From: a virus
Lineage: Duplodnaviria > Caudoviricetes
Strand: one strand, 5' to 3'
DNA: 58,643 bases
Virus record (IMG/VR): IMGVR_UViG_3300036798_000432
Coordinates: 1-58,643 of that record
Shown: piece after piece, positions 1,258-56,647 of the stretch
Position numbering within the stretch: the first letter of the stretch is position 1
Layout: every line of letters begins with the position of its first letter
Notes under the pieces: model-generated
Databases searched by the model: none
Told to the model about the DNA's origin: nothing
Seen by the model: only the letters and a program-made list of their open reading frames with translations
Position numbers and translations under genes: made by a program

Positions 1258-2193
1258 GTGTCTGACCAGAGGAGCAATGTCGTCGGGTTTCCAGGTGGCG
1301 GCACCGTGCCGCCGGGGCCGGCCGGTGGGCCGCCTCCGGGGGTTGGGGGAACGCCTGCCCCACCGGGAACGACCGGGCCGCCCATTCGGCCAGGTCCGCC
1401 ACCGCCGGGCCCTGGGGGGCCTGCTTCAGGGCCCGGCGGGGCATCACCAGTCCCTGGCGGTCCGGCGCCGGGGGGTGCAGCGCCCGGACCGGGGCCGGTG
1501 GCGGCGCCGGGTATGACGCTCAACCCGGCTTTTATGCAATGGCAGCAAATGAGCCAGGCCTGGCACGCCGAAAACAACCGGCGCCGCCAGCAATTCCTGC
1601 AGGCGTGTCACACCCTGCGCCACGATGTGCGGACCGGCTACAAGATCGACATCGAAGCCGATTCGACGATCGCCCCCGATGAGCAGGCGGAAAAGCAGGC
1701 ACGCACCGAATTCCTGCAGTCGATCATGCCGATGCTGCAGATGATCATCCCGGAGGTGCAGAATAATCCGCAGGTCGCCCAGCTGGCGGCGGCACTGGTG
1801 ATGTTCGGGGTGCGGGCGTTCCCGGCGGCGCGCGGGCTCGAGGACACGTTTCTCCAGGCCTTTGCCGCGCTGGCGCAGGCGCCGCCGCAGCCCAATCAGG
1901 GGCAGGGCAAAGGCAACACCAAGTCGCCGATGGAGATCATGACCGAGGCGAAGACCGCGCAGGGTGATCAGCAGATCGATGCCGCAAAGGTCCAGGCTGA
2001 TCAGCAGAAAAACTCGATCGAGTTGATGAAGGCCTACATCGCGGCCCAGGGCGATCGGGCGAAATTGGCGCAGGAAGGCCAGCTCCGCGCCGCCGAGCTC
2101 GCGCAGCAGGGTCAGGAGATCCAGGACCGGTCGGCGCTCGAAGCGGCGCGGACCAGCCATTTGATGGCTCGCGACACCGCCGGATTGGTTTAA
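1258..2193 (+). CDS. Portal protein, C-terminal fragment (split portal, part 2)
   Basis: After a Pro/Gly tract, YKIDIEADSTIAPDEQAEKQARTEFL...FGVRAFPAARGLE and a Gln-rich coiled coil match the crown/barrel end of P22-like podophage portals. GTG start with AGAAGGG SD. An in-frame TAG lies at 1252. Confidence 0.8.
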   Translation: MSDQRSNVVGFPGGGTVPPGPAGGPPPGVGGTPAPPGTTGPPIRPGPPPPGPGGPASGPGGASPVPGGPAPGGAAPGPGPVAAPGMTLNPAFMQWQQMSQAWHAENNRRRQQFLQACHTLRHDVRTGYKIDIEADSTIAPDEQAEKQARTEFLQSIMPMLQMIIPEVQNNPQVAQLAAALVMFGVRAFPAARGLEDTFLQAFAALAQAPPQPNQGQGKGNTKSPMEIMTEAKTAQGDQQIDAAKVQADQQKNSIELMKAYIAAQGDRAKLAQEGQLRAAELAQQGQEIQDRSALEAARTSHLMARDTAGLV

Positions 2194-2223
2194 AAGAGCC
2201 CGTCTACATTCAAGTATGCCGGC

Positions 2224-3073
2224 CCGGGGATCCCCCTGACCGGCAGAGGGTAGGGTGTATCTGCAGGCCCCTGCAGGTGCAGGGTTGGGAGCGAACCGCG
2301 CGAGGGGCCTCGCGCTTTCCGCCAAAAAAGGAGTTCTGTGGTATGCCGTTTGTCGAAGGCTATTTGGACGAGAAGTGGATCATGGGAGGGCCAGGGCGCC
2401 CGACTCACCCGATCGCGCCCGGTGGTGGTGAGCCAGCGCACCCGATCGTGCTGCCGCCGGGGCCGGTCGATCCTGGTTATGGCGTGCCTTTGCCGCCAGT
2501 GGTGTCGCATCCGATCCCGCCATCGGTCTGGCCGCCTCAGCCCGGAAGTCCGCCGACCTATCCGGTTGACCCTGACTACGGGCTGCCGGTACCACCGACC
2601 GTGTGGCCGCAGCCGCCAAGGCCGCCCGGTCCCGATCAAGGCCTGCCGCCGATCCCGGTTTCGCCGGAGCATCCGATCTATTATCCACCGGAAGGCCAGC
2701 CGCCCGAGCTGCCGCCGGGGAGCGTGTGGCCCCCGCTGCCGCCGTCGGTGACGGGTATCATTACAGCCTTCATCTGGATTGTTGGCGTCGGCTATCGCTG
2801 GACCACGATCGATACCAGCCTCAAGCCCGTGCATCCGATCGTCATTCCACCGTCGAACGTGCCGGGGGTGCCAACGCACCCGATCGCACCAGGCGGGGGC
2901 ACCCCGACCCGTCCGATGGACCCGGGCGGCCAACCGACACCGACCGGTCGCCGAGGGTAAGTAATCGAGGGCTGAACTCTGGCGGCGGACCGGCAGATAT
3001 GAGGCCCTGGGGAGTAGAGCCCGGTCCGTCTAGGCAAACGCTCCCAAGCCGGTGATCCCCGGTCGAGCAGGGG
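2224..3073 (+). ncRNA. Putative large RNA structure formed by the two flanks of the 2343..2960 ORF
   Basis: Pairings: 2224-2232/3054-3062, 2239-2244/3048-3053, 2285-2293/3039-3047, 2319-2324/2980-2985 and 2331-2336/2974-2979, plus local hairpins. Confidence 0.5.
2343..2960 (+). CDS. Proline-rich protein with repeated P-x-HPI and PVDPxYG motifs
   Basis: AAGGAG SD before ATG 2343. Seven HPI motifs, then an FIWIVGVGYRWTTID segment. Confidence 0.8.
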   Translation: MPFVEGYLDEKWIMGGPGRPTHPIAPGGGEPAHPIVLPPGPVDPGYGVPLPPVVSHPIPPSVWPPQPGSPPTYPVDPDYGLPVPPTVWPQPPRPPGPDQGLPPIPVSPEHPIYYPPEGQPPELPPGSVWPPLPPSVTGIITAFIWIVGVGYRWTTIDTSLKPVHPIVIPPSNVPGVPTHPIAPGGGTPTRPMDPGGQPTPTGRRG

Positions 3074-3119
3074 TGGAAGGCCCCGCGTCTATTCGGTGGA
3101 AGAAAACCAGGAGAAAGCG

Positions 3120-3494
3120 ATGGCATTCCGGCGACGCTGGGTGGTGCGCGACGGCCGGCTGGTCGAGCTCGATCTCGAGGCGCCCTTGCCGCCGCCGGTG
3201 GCGCCGATGATACGCAGCGATATCAGTCCTTATCGCTCGGTGAAGACCGGGGAGATGATCACCGGTCGGGCGCAGCACCGCGAGCACCTGCAGCGGCACG
3301 GAATGATCGAGGTCGGTAACGAGCGCGCGCCGTTCTTCAACCGGCCGGCCGCCGGGCCGCCGCCGGGTGACATCGCCAGCGACATCAAGCAGCAATTGGC
3401 GCGCGATCCGGTGGAGCGGCGGAGCGAGGCGACCCGGGTGCTCAACCAGGCCGGCTATTCTGGACCGCAGGTGGAGCGCATCCTAAAATCCTGA
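3120..3494 (+). CDS. Conserved head-module protein of unknown function
   Basis: AGGAG SD. SDISPYRSVKTGEMITGRAQHREHLQRHGMIEVGNE is a motif often found between portal and scaffold genes. Confidence 0.8.
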   Translation: MAFRRRWVVRDGRLVELDLEAPLPPPVAPMIRSDISPYRSVKTGEMITGRAQHREHLQRHGMIEVGNERAPFFNRPAAGPPPGDIASDIKQQLARDPVERRSEATRVLNQAGYSGPQVERILKS

Positions 3495-3495
3495 G

Positions 3496-4155
3496 GTGCC
3501 CGCCAGTCTGATCATCCCGGTTGTTGTCCCGGCGCTAGCCGAGAAGCGCTGGAAGATCCGCCTGCGGGTCGACGCGGATCAGACGGCCTGGACCGAGTGC
3601 GAGAATTTTGCCGAGCTGACCCGGGCGGTCGGCCAGGCGCGCGAAATGTCGCCGGACGCCGAGCTCTACATCACCGCACCGAGCGAGGCTGCGTTGGATC
3701 ACGAGCTCCGGGTGGCGGCCGGAATGATCATGTTTGACGCGAGCGATCCGGCCTGGCCCGGGCCGCCGCTCGGCGATGTGTTCTTTGGCGGGCTGCGCAA
3801 CCTCGATCATCTCTATGCGCGGCTAAAGGGGGCGCGGATCAGCATCGAGGCCGGAATGGCGGCTGAGAATGCGGCAGTGTGTGTACTGAAGCGCATGGGT
3901 CTGCTCGAGCCGCCGCGTCCGGTGCGGGTGATCCAGCCGCCGGCATTGCCCAGGCCGCGCAAGGCGCGCAAGCCGCGCGAGACGAAGCCGCGCGAGACGG
4001 CGGCGGCCAAGATGCGCCGGCTGTGGGAGCGTGAGCGCCGCCGGAAGCTGCTGAACCGGGTCAAGGACGAGAGCGGTCCGCGGGATCAGTGGTTGAGCTA
4101 CGGCCCGACGGACTGGGACAATTTTGCGCCGATCAAACCGCGAAAACGCCGCTAA
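3496..4155 (+). CDS. Hypothetical protein with basic C-terminus
   Basis: 219-aa ORF abutting the upstream gene, with GC3-rich codons. Confidence 0.65.
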   Translation: MPASLIIPVVVPALAEKRWKIRLRVDADQTAWTECENFAELTRAVGQAREMSPDAELYITAPSEAALDHELRVAAGMIMFDASDPAWPGPPLGDVFFGGLRNLDHLYARLKGARISIEAGMAAENAAVCVLKRMGLLEPPRPVRVIQPPALPRPRKARKPRETKPRETAAAKMRRLWERERRRKLLNRVKDESGPRDQWLSYGPTDWDNFAPIKPRKRR

Positions 4156-14258: not shown

Positions 14259-14455
14259 GCCGAACGGCGCGGGGTATCCTGGCCGAGGCGGTGCGCTGGT
14301 ACGAGAACGCCGCCTTTGTCTTCAAGACCGCCGGCATGGAGCCGAAAGAGCCTCCGGCTTGGGTTGTCGCTGCCCGAAAAGTGGGGGTGCCAAATGACGA
14401 TTGTAGCCTATCGCGAGGGAGTGCTGGCGACCGACAGCCAGGCGACCAATCATGA
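14255..14455 (+). CDS. Hypothetical protein
   Basis: GTGA overlap with the upstream stop; also overlaps the next gene. Confidence 0.4.
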   Translation: MSRTARGILAEAVRWYENAAFVFKTAGMEPKEPPAWVVAARKVGVPNDDCSLSRGSAGDRQPGDQS

Positions 14456-14870
14456 CGGGGTGATCTCCGGCTCGGTGCGCAAGATCTGGGTGCGCATGGA
14501 TGGTGCGCTGTGCAGTGCGGCCGGCGGCACCGGCGATATGGGCAGCTTTGCCGCCTGGTTTCTCGCGGACAGCAAAGAACAAGGGCGCTGGCGCGGACGC
14601 AGTAAAGAGCACGGGTTTTCCGGGATCATCGTCGAACCCGACGGTCAGGTCACCCTCTACGACATCGACGGGCAGCCCTATCGCATGGATGCGCCGTTTT
14701 ATGCCCGCGGGGTCGGGTCGGAGCTGGCGATCGGTGCGATGGCGATGGGGGCGACGGCAGAGCAGGCGGTCGAGATCGCTTGCCGCTATTCGACCTATTG
14801 CGGCGGCCCGGTGCAGGTCGAGCGCCTGCCGCCGCAGGCCTGTCTCGATACCCGGCGCGGAGACAAGTGA
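14394..14870 (+). CDS. Ntn-hydrolase, proteasome-beta/HslV-like protein
   Basis: M-T-IVAY...LATDSQAT (N-terminal Thr nucleophile), RKI, GVGSELAIGAM..GATAEQAVEIA...GG. Confidence 0.8.
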   Translation: MTIVAYREGVLATDSQATNHDGVISGSVRKIWVRMDGALCSAAGGTGDMGSFAAWFLADSKEQGRWRGRSKEHGFSGIIVEPDGQVTLYDIDGQPYRMDAPFYARGVGSELAIGAMAMGATAEQAVEIACRYSTYCGGPVQVERLPPQACLDTRRGDK

Positions 14871-25495: not shown

Positions 25496-26263
25496 TCATC
25501 CGAGGATCAACACGCCGCGGCGGTTGTCGATCGTGTACGTCCCTAGTTGCCGCAGGAAATCCTGGCCGAGGAGAGGCACCGAAGAAATCGTCGCGGTGAG
25601 ACCGGAAACGGTGCGGCCGCCGACGGTGAGGCGGTCGAGCCTGACGGTTCCGACCTGTGACGCGTGGCCGTCGGCGTTGCTCATCGAAGCCATGCCGCGC
25701 CAATCAGCCTCGGTCAGCAGCCCCTGGTTCACCAGCTGCCGCGCCATCTCCTTGGTGATCTGCGTCGTGCCGGCGCCGGTATCGAGCATAAAGCGCGCGG
25801 GCAGACCATTGATCGAGGCGGTGAGCGCGTAGTGCTGGCCCATGACGTTGTCGAGCTTGACTTCGGTGGCGCCGTTCATCGGCGCGGCTGCCGGGGGCTC
25901 CCATCGTGGATTGGCATAGGCCGGGTTTTCGTAAGGCGGCGCCGGGGGTAGGTTTTCGTAAGACGCCGCCGGCAGGCCGCAGCTACTGACGATCTGCTGC
26001 GCCTGGGCGCGGGTGCCGGCGTCGTAACGCGGATTATTGAGAACCGCGAGCCATGACTGGCAGGCGGCGCTGTTGGGGGCGTAGGCGGGCTGAGGCGGAT
26101 AGTAGGCTGGCGGCGGCTGGTTGGCGTTGGCGACGGCGGCCCCAGCGATGATGCCGCCGATGATGCCGAGAGCGAGCCCGACACCGTTGCCGCGAGCCGC
26201 GGCGGGAACGGGCGCCAGGGCGACGGCGCCGACAAGCGCGATCGCGGTCAAGGTCTTGAACAT
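25496..26263 (-). CDS. Secreted retropepsin-like (clan AA) aspartyl protease
   Basis: Signal peptide; ASING...FMLDTGA...IT and LLGQDFL motifs. Confidence 0.9.
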   Translation of the reverse strand: MFKTLTAIALVGAVALAPVPAAARGNGVGLALGIIGGIIAGAAVANANQPPPAYYPPQPAYAPNSAACQSWLAVLNNPRYDAGTRAQAQQIVSSCGLPAASYENLPPAPPYENPAYANPRWEPPAAAPMNGATEVKLDNVMGQHYALTASINGLPARFMLDTGAGTTQITKEMARQLVNQGLLTEADWRGMASMSNADGHASQVGTVRLDRLTVGGRTVSGLTATISSVPLLGQDFLRQLGTYTIDNRRGVLILG

Positions 26264-28280: not shown

Positions 28281-28976
28281 ATGTCGAAAACACTTCTCGC
28301 CGCAGCCGCCCTGACGCTGGCGGCCGTCGCGGCCGCCCTCTCTGGCTCAGCCCAGGCCGGCGTGCTGAATTGCGAGATCACCATCGACGGCGCGCAGGTC
28401 GCGACGTGCGCCACTTCGAGCACCGGCTCGCTGTCGTTTTCGAGCAACCTGGTGTCGCCGCTGTTCTCGTCAATTTCGCTAACCGCCGATGGGCCGCCTG
28501 TTCTGCCAAATCCCGATCTGAGTACCGTCACCCTCGACGTCTCGTCGTCGGCTGGCTTTTCGGGCACACATGTTCTGGGTGTCGATATTTTCCAAACCGG
28601 GGTTAGTGCGCCGGCCGGCACCACGCTGGAGAGCACGGCAACGATCAACGGGCTGATCAACCTGCCGGGGCCGACCACGCTCTCGGACGCCTTCAACGGC
28701 ACCGCCTCGACATTGGGCACCACCCTGCGAAGCTCGACCTTCGCTTCCACGTTTACCGGAGCGGTCGGGCCTTTCTTCGACGTCCTGAGCGTGCCGCTGA
28801 CCGCCGATGCGGAGCAGTACCTGATCACCTTTACGGCGCCGAACCAGAGCGCGAACGACACGATCCAGCTCCAGGGCGTCATTCCAAGCGTGGGCGAGCC
28901 GTCCACGCTGGCCTTGCTCGGCAGCGCGCTGATCGGCTTGGGTTTGTGGCACCGGCGCCGCTCGGGCCTAAGCTGA
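28281..28976 (+). CDS. Secreted protein with PEP-CTERM-like exosortase sorting signal
   Basis: Signal peptide, Ser/Thr-rich body, C-terminal VGEPSTLALLGSALIGLGLWHRRRS. Confidence 0.85.
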   Translation: MSKTLLAAAALTLAAVAAALSGSAQAGVLNCEITIDGAQVATCATSSTGSLSFSSNLVSPLFSSISLTADGPPVLPNPDLSTVTLDVSSSAGFSGTHVLGVDIFQTGVSAPAGTTLESTATINGLINLPGPTTLSDAFNGTASTLGTTLRSSTFASTFTGAVGPFFDVLSVPLTADAEQYLITFTAPNQSANDTIQLQGVIPSVGEPSTLALLGSALIGLGLWHRRRSGLS

Positions 28977-36143: not shown

Positions 36144-36239
36144 GGGTGCTCCGTTGCTAGTGTCCCCAAAGGGGTTCGAACCCTTGTTTTCGCCGTGAAA
36201 GAGCGATGTCCTGGGCCGCTAGACGATGGGGACGAGATC

Positions 36240-52191: not shown

Positions 52192-52275
52192 CAGGGTGGG
52201 GTCCCCCAGAAAAAGTTTTTGCCCGACGGGTGGGGATGCGACTCCACCCTAGACCAAACCCAGAACATCGGAAAA

Positions 52276-54483
52276 ATGATGCCGAGCTACGAGCCGCAGG
52301 GCGCGCAGCTGCGTGCCTTTTCCGCCTCCAATGCGTTTTTGCGGGCCCTGATCGGGCCGATCTACGGCGGCCGCAAAAGCTGCTGCATCAACGATATCGT
52401 TCGACGGGCGACAATCCGGCGGTGGGCGAAGCAAACCCGCTGGCGGTGGGTCGTAGTGGCGCCGATTCGCCGCGAGCTCGAGCGATTTGTGATCCCAACG
52501 ATCAAGAATTGGCTGGAAGTCGGCGAATACGACGACAAAGGGCGGCATTTCGCCCTGCATTACCGCCTCGAGGACGGGGTCCAGCGTCTGATCGAGATCG
52601 ATTTCCTCGGTATGGACGATGCGCAGGACCGAAAACGCTTCGCTGTGGCCACGGCGACGGGTGTCTGGCTCGATGATGCCCGAAATTTGAGCGAAAGCGT
52701 CCTCGAAGACGCGATGCGCATCGCCGGCACGTACCCGACACCGCTCGCCGGTGGGGCGATGTGGTCGGGGGTGATCTGCTCGTCGCGGATGCCGCCGCCT
52801 GGTCATTGGCTGGTGCGCAGGCCAGAGGACCCGGGCGATTTACAGCTGTTTCGTCAGCCTGGCGGGCGGACCGCGGAGGCCGAGAACCTGCCGGCGCTGC
52901 AGGCCAGGGGCTTCAGCTACGAGGCGTTTGCCAGCGAGCGCGACGCCGACTGGATCAGGGTCAATATCGACGGCGAGCTCGGGCAAACCGCGACCGAGGC
53001 GGCGGCCGAGGCCGAACGAGCCGCTGCCCGCCAGCAATTGACCCGTTGGGTCGGGCTGACGATGCCCGATTTGACGCCGGCACGGCATCACGAGCTGCTG
53101 ATTGCCAAGCTCGAGGCCCTGGCGCGGCGCGAAATCAAGCGTTTGATGTTCTTTTTGCCGCCTGGATCGGCCAAAAGCACCTATGGCAGCGTGCTTTTCC
53201 CCTCCTGGTACATCGGCAACCACCCGACGCACTCGGTAATCGCCGCCTCGCACTCCAAGGAGCTCGCCGAGCGGTTTGGCCGCCGGGTCCGCAACATCGT
53301 CGGTTCACCAATCTTTCGGGAAACGTTCGGGTTTGGCCTGAGCGGCGATTCGGGTGCCGCCGGGCGCTGGGAAACCGCCCGCGGGGGCGAATATTTTGCC
53401 GTCGGCGTCGACGCCTCGGTCACCGGCCGGCGCGCCCATCTCGGTATCATCGATGATCCGGTCAAAGGCCGCGCCGAGGCCGACAGTGCGACGATCCGGC
53501 AGCACGTTTGGGAGTGGTACAAGGCCGATTTCTGGACCCGGCTCGTGCCCGAGGCGACGATGCTCTACATCGGCACCCGGTGGCACGAGGATGATCTCGC
53601 CGGGCGCCTGCTCGAGGACGCCAAGGTCGGCGGCGAGCAATGGGAAGTGGTCAGTCTGCCGGCGATCGTCGAGGAGGAGGGGGATGCGCTGGGCCGGATC
53701 ATCGGCGAGCGGCTCTGGCCCGAGTGGTACACCCCGGAGATGCTGGAGGTCGCCCAGCGCGACACGCGGAACTGGTCGGCACTCTGGCAGCAGCGGCCAA
53801 TGCCGGAATCGGGCGACTATTTCCAGAATGACTGGGTGCGCTGGTATGACAGCGCCCCGCCGCGTGACCGGCTGCGCACCTATGGCGCCTCGGATTACGC
53901 GGTGAAGGCCAATGCCGGCGACTGGACGGTGCACCTGGTCGCCGGGATCGACCCCAACGATGATCTCTATCTCCTAGATCTGTGGCGCAAACAAACCGCC
54001 TCGAACGAATGGGTCGAGTCGGTTATCGATCTGATGGATCTGTGGAAAACCATCACCTGGGCCGAGGAGGCCGGGCAGATCGAGAAGGGGGTCGGGCCGT
54101 TTCTGACCAAGCGTCAGCTCGAGCGCAAGATCTACGCGGTCAGAAAGCAATACAGCTCGGCCGCGGACAAGGCGGTGCGAGCCCAGGCGATCCGCGGCCG
54201 GGTGGCGATGGGCAAGGTGTACTTGCCCAAGCGCGCGCCCTGGGCGCCGGTGCTGCTCGACGAAATGCTGCGCTTTCCGGCTGGGAAAGCAGATGACCAG
54301 GTCGACGGCCTGGCCCTTTTGGGCCGGATGCTCGACGAGATGGTGCCGGGGAGCAAACCCAAGCCGGCGGCCGAGGAGCCGCGCGGGGTTTCCGGCATGA
54401 CGCTCGACGAGCTGTGGAAGCTCGATAAGCGATATTTCAAAAATGGCCGGTTTGTCGGGGATGGTCGGCCGCTGAGGATCTGA
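52276..54483 (+). CDS. terL: Terminase large subunit with an extra, degenerate N-terminal TerL ATPase domain
   Basis: Intact unit: PPGSAKST, IIDDP, GTRWH, nuclease ASDYA / AEEA / DDQVD. Extra unit: GPIYGGRKS, GVWLDD, G.YP...GG..WSG, FRQPGG....AENL. Confidence 0.9.
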   Translation: MMPSYEPQGAQLRAFSASNAFLRALIGPIYGGRKSCCINDIVRRATIRRWAKQTRWRWVVVAPIRRELERFVIPTIKNWLEVGEYDDKGRHFALHYRLEDGVQRLIEIDFLGMDDAQDRKRFAVATATGVWLDDARNLSESVLEDAMRIAGTYPTPLAGGAMWSGVICSSRMPPPGHWLVRRPEDPGDLQLFRQPGGRTAEAENLPALQARGFSYEAFASERDADWIRVNIDGELGQTATEAAAEAERAAARQQLTRWVGLTMPDLTPARHHELLIAKLEALARREIKRLMFFLPPGSAKSTYGSVLFPSWYIGNHPTHSVIAASHSKELAERFGRRVRNIVGSPIFRETFGFGLSGDSGAAGRWETARGGEYFAVGVDASVTGRRAHLGIIDDPVKGRAEADSATIRQHVWEWYKADFWTRLVPEATMLYIGTRWHEDDLAGRLLEDAKVGGEQWEVVSLPAIVEEEGDALGRIIGERLWPEWYTPEMLEVAQRDTRNWSALWQQRPMPESGDYFQNDWVRWYDSAPPRDRLRTYGASDYAVKANAGDWTVHLVAGIDPNDDLYLLDLWRKQTASNEWVESVIDLMDLWKTITWAEEAGQIEKGVGPFLTKRQLERKIYAVRKQYSSAADKAVRAQAIRGRVAMGKVYLPKRAPWAPVLLDEMLRFPAGKADDQVDGLALLGRMLDEMVPGSKPKPAAEEPRGVSGMTLDELWKLDKRYFKNGRFVGDGRPLRI

Positions 54484-54904: not shown

Positions 54905-56647
54905 ATGGCCGATTTAGCGGTTGCCTCGACAGTTGTCGGCACGATCGAAGAGCGCAAGGACCTCGGCACCGAGCCGAATGCGATCTGGCGCTTCTGGAAC
55001 TCGCAGCTGAAGCTCGCCGAGCGAACTGATGAGGACTGGATCAAGCGGGGGCGCCAGGCAGTCGACCGGTACCGCGACGAGCGCGACCAGAACGAGGCGC
55101 GGGCCAGCAAATACAACGTCTTGTGGTCAAATGTGGAGACCCTCAAGCCGGTGCTCTACGGGCGGACGCCAGAACCGGACGTCGCCCGCCGGCACAAGGA
55201 TCAGCATGACGCAGTGGCCTCGCTGGGCGCCCAGATCCTCGAAACCGCGCTGGATTACGAGAACGATATCGAAGAATTCGACGCGGTGATGCAGCAAGTC
55301 GTCGAAGATCGGTTATTGCCCGGCCGTGGTGTCGCCAGAGTGTTCTACGAGCCGGAATTTGGCGAGGAAGAGGAAGACCAAGACGCCGAGCCCGATGAAG
55401 AGGGTAATCAGCCGACATTTCAGTCGGTGACCAATGAGAGAGCGCCGGTGCGCTATGTATTCTGGGAAGATTACCGAGAAACACCGGCCAGAACGGAAGG
55501 CGAGATCTGGTGGAAGGCCTACCGGGTATTTATGACCCGCGACGAGCTCGTCGAGCGGTTTGGCAGTGAAATCGGCAAAAAGGTGACCCTCGATTACACC
55601 CCGTCGGGGGTGCATGCGGTGGCCAGCGAGGCGCAATGGGGCCCGCTGGCGGACATGTTCAAAAAGGCGACCGTCTGGGAGATTTGGGACCGCAAACGCA
55701 AGGAAGCGGTGTGGATCGCCAAGGCCTGGTCGGACGCGCCGCTCGACAGCCAGGACGACCCTTTGGAATTGCCGGATTTTTTCCCGTCGCCGCCGGCTTT
55801 GCGGGCGACCACGACCAATGAGCAGCGGGTCTCGGTCAACGATTATGTTGAATATCAAGACCAGGCGATGGAGCTCGACACATTGACCGCGCGGATCGAC
55901 CGCCTGACCCGGGCGCTCAAGGTCTCGGGTGTCTATGCGGGCTCGGAGAAGATGACCCTGCAGCAGCTGGTCGACGATTCGAGCGAGAACAAATTGATCC
56001 CGGTCGAGGATTGGACCGGGTTTGCCGGCGACAAGGGCGGGCTCAACGGGTTGATCCAGTGGCTGCCGGTCGAGCAGATCGCTCGCGTCCTGATCCAGCT
56101 CTATGACGCCCGCGAGCGCACCCTGCGGATCATCTACCAGACGACCGGCATCGCCGACATTCTGCGCGGCGAAACCAATCCGATCGAGACGCTGGGCGCG
56201 CAGCAGCTGAAGACCCAGTTTGCGACCCGGCGCATCACCCGGGCGCAAAAGGACGTCGCCCGCTTCGCCCGCGATCTGCTGCGGCTCAAAGGGGCGGTGA
56301 TGGCGCGGCATTTTATGCCCGAGACGCTCTCGCGGATGTCCGGGCTTCCCGAACCGCTCCCGGCACTGCCGCCACCCCCGCCGATGATGATCCCGGCGCC
56401 GTCTCCTGCGGCGGCCGGTTCGGCGCTAGGCGGCCCGGCGCTACCCTCGTCGGCTCCCGTCCCGGGAGCGGTACCAGCAAGGCCCCCGGGCATGGCCCCG
56501 GGCCTTCCGCCGGGTGCTGGTGGTGCACCTGGCATCCGGCCACCCCTGGCACCGGCGGCGCCGGTGCCAGGGGCACGGCTCGCGCCCGATGGCCGCCATT
56601 ATGTGCCGGACCCGCGGCGCCCCGGCAAATACCTGATGGTGGCTTAA
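54905..56647 (+). CDS. Portal protein, N-terminal fragment (split portal, part 1)
   Basis: YNVLWSNVETLKP.LY...P.PDV.RR, DRLLPGRGVARV, VWEIWD, DPLEL..FFP.P, IYQ.TGIADILRG, ETLGAQQLK. Then Pro-rich tail and stop, lacking the IDIEADST region. Confidence 0.9.
   Translation: MADLAVASTVVGTIEERKDLGTEPNAIWRFWNSQLKLAERTDEDWIKRGRQAVDRYRDERDQNEARASKYNVLWSNVETLKPVLYGRTPEPDVARRHKDQHDAVASLGAQILETALDYENDIEEFDAVMQQVVEDRLLPGRGVARVFYEPEFGEEEEDQDAEPDEEGNQPTFQSVTNERAPVRYVFWEDYRETPARTEGEIWWKAYRVFMTRDELVERFGSEIGKKVTLDYTPSGVHAVASEAQWGPLADMFKKATVWEIWDRKRKEAVWIAKAWSDAPLDSQDDPLELPDFFPSPPALRATTTNEQRVSVNDYVEYQDQAMELDTLTARIDRLTRALKVSGVYAGSEKMTLQQLVDDSSENKLIPVEDWTGFAGDKGGLNGLIQWLPVEQIARVLIQLYDARERTLRIIYQTTGIADILRGETNPIETLGAQQLKTQFATRRITRAQKDVARFARDLLRLKGAVMARHFMPETLSRMSGLPEPLPALPPPPPMMIPAPSPAAAGSALGGPALPSSAPVPGAVPARPPGMAPGLPPGAGGAPGIRPPLAPAAPVPGARLAPDGRHYVPDPRRPGKYLMVA

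Follow-up and report, generated by a model that had tools for sequence, protein, structure and literature searches.

The stretch of DNA analyzed here, referred to below as the window, is the IMG/VR virus record IMGVR_UViG_3300036798_000432 in its whole length of 58,643 nt (64.6% GC; classified as linear and 98% complete). Just downstream of a portal gene fragment, it carries an open reading frame (ORF) for a proline-rich protein with HPI repeats, and the sequences on both sides of this ORF raise the question of whether they form one structure. An earlier note had placed the whole ORF in the loop of a long-range RNA structure built from its two flanks, possibly an intron-like element, a circularization or processing signal, or a switch acting on the Shine–Dalgarno sequence (SD). 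Our analysis bears out one part of this interpretation, in that a structured RNA is present, but not the other, a fold that spans both flanks and encloses the complete ORF. We consider it probable that the HPI ORF and its leader of ~140 nt form a self-contained, moron-like cassette in a hypervariable slot and that the 24-nt match between the flanks joins two unrelated modules rather than marking a conserved RNA that encloses the ORF.

The three-hairpin leader upstream of the HPI ORF

The left flank of the HPI ORF is a conserved leader in which three predicted hairpins (H1, H2, and H3) are split by invariant G-tract linkers, and it occurs with proline-rich HPI-repeat genes in at least eight soil-phage contigs (Table 1). 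The regions upstream of the HPI genes in the window and in loci L002 and L004 could be aligned from about position 2200 to the ATG, and all three have the same three hairpins in common. A covariance model built on these three seeds returned its own seeds only (three matches in 46 sources) and gave no true match in 37 and in 15 further sources. A looser pattern scan yielded five more full-length copies (L101, L105, L106, L111, and L116) at 68.7 to 89.3 bits. At least eight full-length copies in eight phage contigs are thus at hand, scoring 68.7 to 154 bits with covariance model R1 and 103 to 134 bits with model R2; the E-values are rough owing to a short calibration. More copies probably exist.

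The pairing of the leader is strongly supported by covariation. In the eight-sequence alignment, which was fitted to the covariance model, 97.3% of 221 cells are paired, and two-sided changes occur in 16 of 29 pairs (34 cells). H1 has 11 pairs, 7 of them with two-sided changes, and 94% of its cells are paired; H2 has 10 pairs, 7 with two-sided changes and 98.7% of cells paired; and H3 has 8 pairs, 2 with two-sided changes and every cell paired. None of 500 shuffles reached any of the five measures of leader pairing, and slid controls were 30 to 54% paired with 0 to 3 such pairs. Moreover, an independent MAFFT/RNAalifold run gave the same three hairpins with 28 pairs, 14 of them compensatory. 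The two side hairpins that the earlier note had drawn at 2256–2281 and 2298–2315 are H2 and H3, and they are real, conserved, and covarying. The G-tracts between the hairpins are nearly invariant (AGAGGGTWGGG and GGGTYGGG), and the linker 1 pattern AGAGGGTAGGGTGT occurs once in the window against an expectation of 0. The loop of H2 is rich in C (CCCC in seven of the eight copies), and that of H3 reads GGGG throughout. On the two sides of H2, four G3 tracts (GGGTWGGG ... GGGTYGGG) stay unchanged in the window (2245–2289) and in the seven other copies. They might form a G-quadruplex whose central loop holds H2, or there might be a loop–loop contact; either lies beyond the reach of covariation because the G-tracts do not vary.

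All eight leader copies are followed by an SD-like purine run and then by a proline-rich HPI-repeat ORF, which is 190 to 228 residues long in the window, L101, L105, L106, L111, and L116. The ORFs of the window, L002, L004, and L105 are members of the HPI family proper; the other four are divergent relatives, among which the L106 ORF matches that of the window with a BLASTP E-value of 5e-11. A strict leader pattern found nine stretches in viral contigs, of which two were true and both already known, whereas none was true among 30 stretches in metagenome contigs (best model match 14.4 bits, E 0.099) or among 12 in genome contigs. With the loosest viral pattern, 71 new loci among the matches listed gave one weak R2 match, at L167:5245–5358 on the minus strand (17.4 bits, E 0.0035). 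In soil run X3, whose contigs matching the window are evidence of presence only, a 4,695-nt contig carries a leader-like stretch on window positions 2242–2320 with 10 differences and 2 gaps; 30 letters behind this stretch start like the leader-linked proline-rich ORF of L106, which lies outside the HPI family proper.

With regard to the suggestion of an intron, ribozyme, or riboswitch, no known family matched. Rfam at gathering score gave nothing relevant in the whole window and no match in the seven other leader loci (4,227 families), and at E-values up to 10 it gave nothing relevant in region 2000–3300. The leader is best described as a candidate cis-regulatory RNA motif that was previously undescribed. 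Orphan cis-regulatory leaders, riboswitch candidates, and attenuators combine covarying stems with invariant single-stranded stretches upstream of one gene family, and some of them end in a terminator hairpin before the SD. The leader of the window is similar in its stems, its invariant linkers, and its position before one gene family. However, no ligand, factor, or antiterminator fold was identified for it, its copies number at least eight, and a U-run follows H3 in two of eight. No mutually exclusive antiterminator fold was evident by eye, and no systematic search for one was made.

The leader would act in cis on the sense-strand RNA, affecting read-through, stability, or translation of the next gene. 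H3 with its U-run would form a full intrinsic terminator in two of the eight copies; in the window, where the cassette lies inside a late operon, this terminator appears weakened, which may be an adaptation to read-through. A run of at least four T residues follows H3 in three of the eight copies in alignment A8. In phage HK022, the put antiterminator RNA in the leader folds into stem-loops ahead of a terminator; it offers no more than an analogy for a possible action of H1 and H2 on H3.

A different reading of the same hairpins is that they are no regulatory leader and instead constitute either a stack of transcription terminators or of insulators or an element working at the DNA level and merely carried along with the cassette, with the G-tracts acting as promoter, operator, or G-quadruplex DNA. 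In L002 and L004, the HPI unit indeed lies between terminator-like hairpins: H3 with its T-run (T6) scores as an intrinsic terminator 23 nt upstream of the ATG, and another terminator lies behind the stop codon. H1, H2, and H3 are all GC-rich stems. In four of the five new copies (L116, L106, L111, and L105), the sequence immediately 5′ of the leader is richer in AT, so that a promoter could overlap the 5′ end of the leader. However, 17 paired leader cells counted from the pairing table are G-U or U-G, which favors sense-strand RNA because these cells would be mismatches on the other strand. Neither H1 nor H2 has a U-run, and in all eight copies the leader extends past an SD-like run to a point close to the ATG, in front of the same kind of ORF. 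The terminator scan covered three of the eight copies (the window, L002, and L004), and no sigma-70-like promoter scored in any of these three; within window positions 1900–3400, the promoter and terminator scans gave zero hits each. A candidate upstream promoter motif, GTCTAYNNTCRAGTAT, was dropped as nonrecurrent, with 4 matches in the window against 3.3 expected. Taken together, a terminator stack or DNA-level element appears unlikely. A regulatory leader that covaries strongly, matches no Rfam family, and accompanies the genes of an orphan group of extremely proline-rich phage proteins would offer a concrete handle on accessory-gene control in soil phages.

The HPI cassette and the slot between portal and g3120

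Comparison with the closest relative found, L030, separates the two flanks of the HPI ORF. The g3120 product is 99% identical between the two, the genes flanking the slot share 92 to 97% DNA identity, and the homolog of the portal C-terminal fragment (portalC) shares 94% protein identity. However, L030 has no counterpart of 2194–2963 and carries 14 unrelated bases after the portal stop codon instead. The L030 copy of the 2964–3105 element follows right after these 14 bases, without the cassette. Similarly, one contig in soil run X3 matches precisely 2964–3105, with a single difference, and departs from the window beyond both of these borders. Because L030 has the element without the cassette, the right arm of the proposed helix belongs to a resident element, and the left arm was gained or lost together with the ORF. 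By alignment, then, the right flank is a separate resident element that stands without the cassette in the nearest relative.

Behind its copy of the element, L030 carries a 139-residue ORF that is absent from the window, followed by the g3120 homolog. This ORF spans L030:5094–5513, and its ATG overlaps the last base of the element copy; it matched no Pfam family. A homolog lies at L004:4635–5078, about 1 kb downstream of the L004 HPI gene, and the two cargo genes therefore tend to share neighborhoods. The right element was also considered as the leader of this 139-residue gene family, a candidate that was rejected since the element is not conserved upstream of the homologs in L087 and L088. 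L031 and L032 have yet other small genes between portal and g3120. Four relatives thus carry four different cargos, which marks the slot as hypervariable.

The HPI protein itself belongs to no Pfam or PHROG family; it had no usable match in Atlas, with a model pLDDT of 0.44. Its family comprises 179 homologs at E ≤0.001, none of which has a functional name; nearly all are labeled hypothetical protein or are unnamed. Two homologs have automatic labels that are seemingly composition-driven, and two come from metagenome-assembled genomes labeled Stellaceae and Acetobacteraceae. A scan of viral contigs found 28 HPI-homolog loci among 96 pattern matches. When 15 window proteins were compared with 44 loci by tblastn, none of the 24 HPI-positive loci had portalC or g3120 in the fetched flanks. 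L002 and L032 are on the same contig, and the HPI gene there lies ~27 kb from the portal gene. The HPI ORF, together with its leader, is a travelling unit found in various phage contexts.

These features resemble those of phage morons as defined in PMC2920897, which cites Hendrix et al. Measured against that definition, the window agrees in having an extra gene between adjacent conserved phage genes that is variably present (window versus L030, L031, and L032), in the occurrence of this gene in several phage contexts (the 28 HPI loci), in its insertion hotspot, and in the terminator-like hairpins that bracket the units of L002 and L004. It differs from that definition in that the GC content of the window cassette is not deviant, no promoter was detected, and the terminators are missing or weakened in the window.

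The 24-nt complementarity between the flanks

The observations of the earlier note are exact in their sequence facts, whereas their support from chance and energy controls is mixed. The reverse complement of 3039–3062 is exactly 2224–2232 plus 2239–2244 plus 2285–2293 (blocks 1, 2, and 3). Likewise, the reverse complement of the 12-mer 2974–2985, proposed to cover part of the SD, is 2319–2324 plus 2331–2336; however, 268 of 1,000 shuffles reach at least 12 in two 6-mers, and the pair probability of this match is 0 in a fold of exactly 2194–3120. The proposed pseudoknot stands in its letters, 2233–2238 (CCCCTG) being the reverse complement of 3068–3073 (CAGGGG), but not in its pairing, with a probability of 0 in that fold. 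In H1, CCCCTG forms the 3′ strand of the inner stem.

To quantify the 24-nt match, we used a block statistic, S, given by the length of the longest uninterrupted stretch that finds perfect complements in no more than three colinear blocks, each of 6 nt or longer; it was defined post hoc and modeled on the earlier description. A value of 24 was reached by none of 1,000 and none of 31,040 dinucleotide shuffles (maximum 23), by none of 722 160-nt window tiles paired with the left flank (maximum 20), and by none of 59 other gene-flank pairs of the window (maximum 14). Despite the post hoc statistic, the match is clearly unusual.

Homologous loci show no conserved pairing between their flanks, which speaks against an ORF-enclosing fold of any of the proposed kinds. 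For the cognate flanks of six other leader loci, S is 12, 12, 12, 8, 7, and 7, compared with 24 in the window; L111 was dropped from this comparison with a downstream flank of only 15 nt. In all 22 other HPI loci, S is at most 15. In a 23 × 23 matrix of flanks, cognate pairs reached −9.9 kcal/mol and noncognate pairs −9.5 kcal/mol (Mann–Whitney p 0.30), and the window ranked 5th of 23. In cofolds of L002 and L004, other segments pair and H1 and H2 stay local, and the leaders of these two loci give S values of 8 and 12 with the right flank of the window. The same conclusion follows from the arms themselves. The right arm exists in L030 without the left arm and the ORF; there it differs from the window by one change, and the best S that it reaches within ~2 kb is 15. 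On the left, blocks 1 and 2 lie inside H1, whose local pairing covaries in 7 of 11 pairs, and all three blocks fall within the normal variation of the leader family (window versus L101, L106, and L116).

Folding energies add little to the proposed helix. The comparison with shuffled flanks, a check named in the earlier note, gave a cofold energy of −138.8 kcal/mol against −129.8 ± 5.5 kcal/mol (z −1.65), with 9 of 150 shuffles as good. The gain from flank interaction was −12.9 against −9.6 ± 4.3 in shuffles (z −0.75; 28 of 150 as good), and the fold z-scores of the right element alone and the left flank alone were −0.15, −0.86, and −1.13. A partition-function fold of exactly 2194–3120 assigned blocks 1, 2, and 3 pair probabilities of ~1, 0.7, and 0.25. 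In the wider folds 1900–3400, 2000–3250, and 1258–3494, however, the long-range blocks drop to 0 to 0.05, whereas H2 keeps 0.67 to 0.79 and H3 keeps 0.94 to 0.99. When the arms are taken in isolation, their pairing is worth about −21 kcal/mol (−74.1 versus −38.3 and −14.6 kcal/mol). Overall, the stability of the long-range helix is neither beyond composition-matched controls nor robust to context. Judged by the conditions that the earlier note had set for refuting its claim, the ORF-enclosing structure is unsupported.

It could nevertheless be that the helix is real in this phage. In that case, an interrupted 24-bp stem between the H1 arms plus linker 2 and the downstream element would have newly evolved after the cassette landed in the late operon, looping out the HPI cistron; it would act as an RNase III-type processing or insulating stem in the style of rRNA operons or as an icaR-like clamp between the 5′ and 3′ untranslated regions (UTRs), and the leader might be a new sensor RNA built on its four G-tracts, with a G-quadruplex core and H2 in the central loop. 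Besides the exact complementarity and the high S in all three sets of controls, this possibility is favored by block edges that match structural edges, with H2 in the 40-nt gap, by the energy gained by the isolated arms, and by the pair probabilities in the 2194–3120 fragment; moreover, both arms lie outside the ORF and would therefore not be unwound by translation. However, the helix is found in one genome only (S of 7 to 12 at six leader loci and at most 15 at 22 HPI loci), L030 keeps the right arm without a partner, blocks 1 and 2 compete with the covarying H1, the pairing vanishes in three wider contexts, the energy does not exceed that of shuffles, and the statistic was defined after the pattern had been seen. 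We regard such a helix as improbable.

In the icaR mRNA of Staphylococcus aureus, the 5′ and 3′ UTRs form a duplex that serves as a substrate for RNase III and hides the SD (PMC3868564), and this arrangement of pairing UTRs is what the earlier note had proposed for the window. In icaR, the SD-covering pairing was shown experimentally, whereas the 24-nt pairing of the window lies 50 to 120 nt upstream of the SD. In addition, the 12-mer of the window that was proposed to cover the SD is at chance level, and the right arm is in a module that exists without the gene. The RNase III processing stems of rRNA operons are likewise long-range and are formed from sequences flanking a whole functional unit (PMC6582327). 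Such stems are conserved and covary across species, whereas the stem of the window is a singleton without comparative support.

We also considered common descent of the two flanks, in which the right element would derive from a leader-like module as a decayed copy in inverted or direct orientation, since copies of hairpins are always mutually complementary. The flanks do have short direct repeats in common (CCGGGGATCCCC / CCGGTGATCCCC, the exact 10-mer GACCGGCAGA, and GCAGGGTTGGGAG / GCAGGGGTGGAAG), and 3049–3062 is a near-palindrome around GATC, as is the top of H1. However, the window holds no second leader copy on either strand (R1 at E up to 10; R2 at E up to 0.01), and the perfect blocks have no surrounding similarity, unlike the products of decay. 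Local alignment of the two flanks was at shuffle level, with 171 and 179 of 500 shuffles as good in the direct and inverted orientations, and a decayed inverted duplication is therefore unsupported. Such a relic is very improbable. The palindrome CCGGNGATCNCCGG was tried as a recurrent site (38 matches versus 12.6 expected) and dropped because most matches lie within predicted ORFs rather than between genes.

Several points weigh against a self-contained cassette next to an unrelated right element. Because the 24-nt match was not reached in 31,040 shuffles or in any natural control, including tiles and gene-flank pairs, pure coincidence is uncomfortable, and we have no by-product mechanism to offer; the shuffle-level alignment of the flanks supplies none. 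Loss of the cassette in L030, rather than gain in the window, is conceivable. The GC content of the cassette, 0.673, does not differ from that of the genome (0.646 ± 0.033), and no second genome with both the leader and the 2964–3105 element was found. Finally, the function of the leader is read solely from its position and architecture, and the canonical U-run after H3 appears in only two of the eight aligned copies. We nevertheless favor a cassette with its own leader next to a resident element. The 24-nt complementarity appears to be unique to the window genome, and the arrangement with the ORF in a loop is most likely no conserved biological device. This would spare a chase after an intron-like element.

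Gene neighborhood and other features of the window

The coordinates of the cassette, its leader, and the neighboring features are compiled in Table 1.

Table 1. Features at the HPI locus, with window coordinates and the observation that defines each
Feature	Position	Strand	Basis
Portal C-terminal fragment (portalC) of a split gene, upstream neighbor of the cassette	1258..2193	+	phrog_12082 portal profile positions 526-703, E 1e-20
Inserted cassette (leader plus HPI ORF)	2194..2963	+	Alignment with L030: identity up to the portal stop, back at 2964
Conserved three-hairpin leader RNA motif (candidate), ending at the HPI ATG	2207..2345	+	Covariance model, 114.9 bits (R1) and 110.7 bits (R2)
Hairpin H1, holding blocks 1 and 2 (2224-2232, 2239-2244) and the "bulge" CCCCTG	2217..2245	+	-18.5 kcal/mol
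G-tract linker 1, nearly invariant, AGAGGGTAGGGTGT	2245..2258	+	Conserved columns in alignments A4 and A8
Hairpin H2, CCCC loop	2256..2281	+	-16.5 kcal/mol
G-tract linker 2, GGGTTGGG plus AGCG; block 3 is 2285-2293	2282..2293	+	GGGTYGGG in 8 of 8 copies
Hairpin H3, GGGG loop, then TTT only in the window	2298..2315	+	-13.4 kcal/mol
SD-like AAGGAG, 9 nt before the ATG	2328..2333	+	Read from the sequence
HPI-repeat ORF, 205 residues, very proline-rich orphan protein	2343..2960	+	ORF call and translation
Resident intergenic element, containing the 24-mer 3039-3062	2964..3105	+	87% identity over 145 columns to L030:4954-5094
Next conserved late gene (g3120), right border of the variable slot	3120..3494	+	99% protein identity to L030:5557-5928

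The window encodes a large terminase (52219–54483) as well as portal, coat-like, tail-fiber, and ejection proteins, and blastn of 1258–4155 against the phage GenBank collection gave no match. The ORF upstream of the cassette matches the portal profile only in its C-terminal part. The portal gene is split across the contig ends into ORFs 54905–56647 and 1258–2193, which lie ~3.2 kb apart and match positions 14–473 and 526–703 of phrog_12082, respectively. Small genes, several of them on the minus strand, lie between the two portal ORFs. The portal is split in the same way in L030, L031, and L032, whereas in more distant relatives both parts form one uninterrupted frame of 650 to 751 residues (six of six checked). 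The Rfam scan of the window gave no intron match at the split.

Within the block that splits the portal gene, a 74-residue ORF at 426–650 on the plus strand is a candidate anti-CBASS/Thoeris sponge, judged by its matches to the hairpin domain of Acb2/Tad1 (PF24729, E 1.1e-8) and to phrog_1454. L030 has a homolog of this ORF at 86% identity, and L017 has one close to its HPI gene. The locus documents a moron hotspot directly 3′ of a portal gene whose two parts are separated by a 3-kb block of genes, among them the Acb2/Tad1-like anti-defense gene.

The sole Rfam match in the window is a tRNA gene at 36161–36233 on the minus strand (RF00005, 59.7 bits). Three further genes are unusual cargo for a phage. 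The ORF at 25496–26263 (minus strand) has a retroviral-type aspartyl protease domain (PF13975, E 8e-15), the protein encoded at 28281–28976 (plus strand) has a C-terminal PEP-CTERM-like motif that scores just under the cut-off, and 14316–14870 (plus strand) encodes an HslV/proteasome-like peptidase (phrog_1040, E 3e-33).

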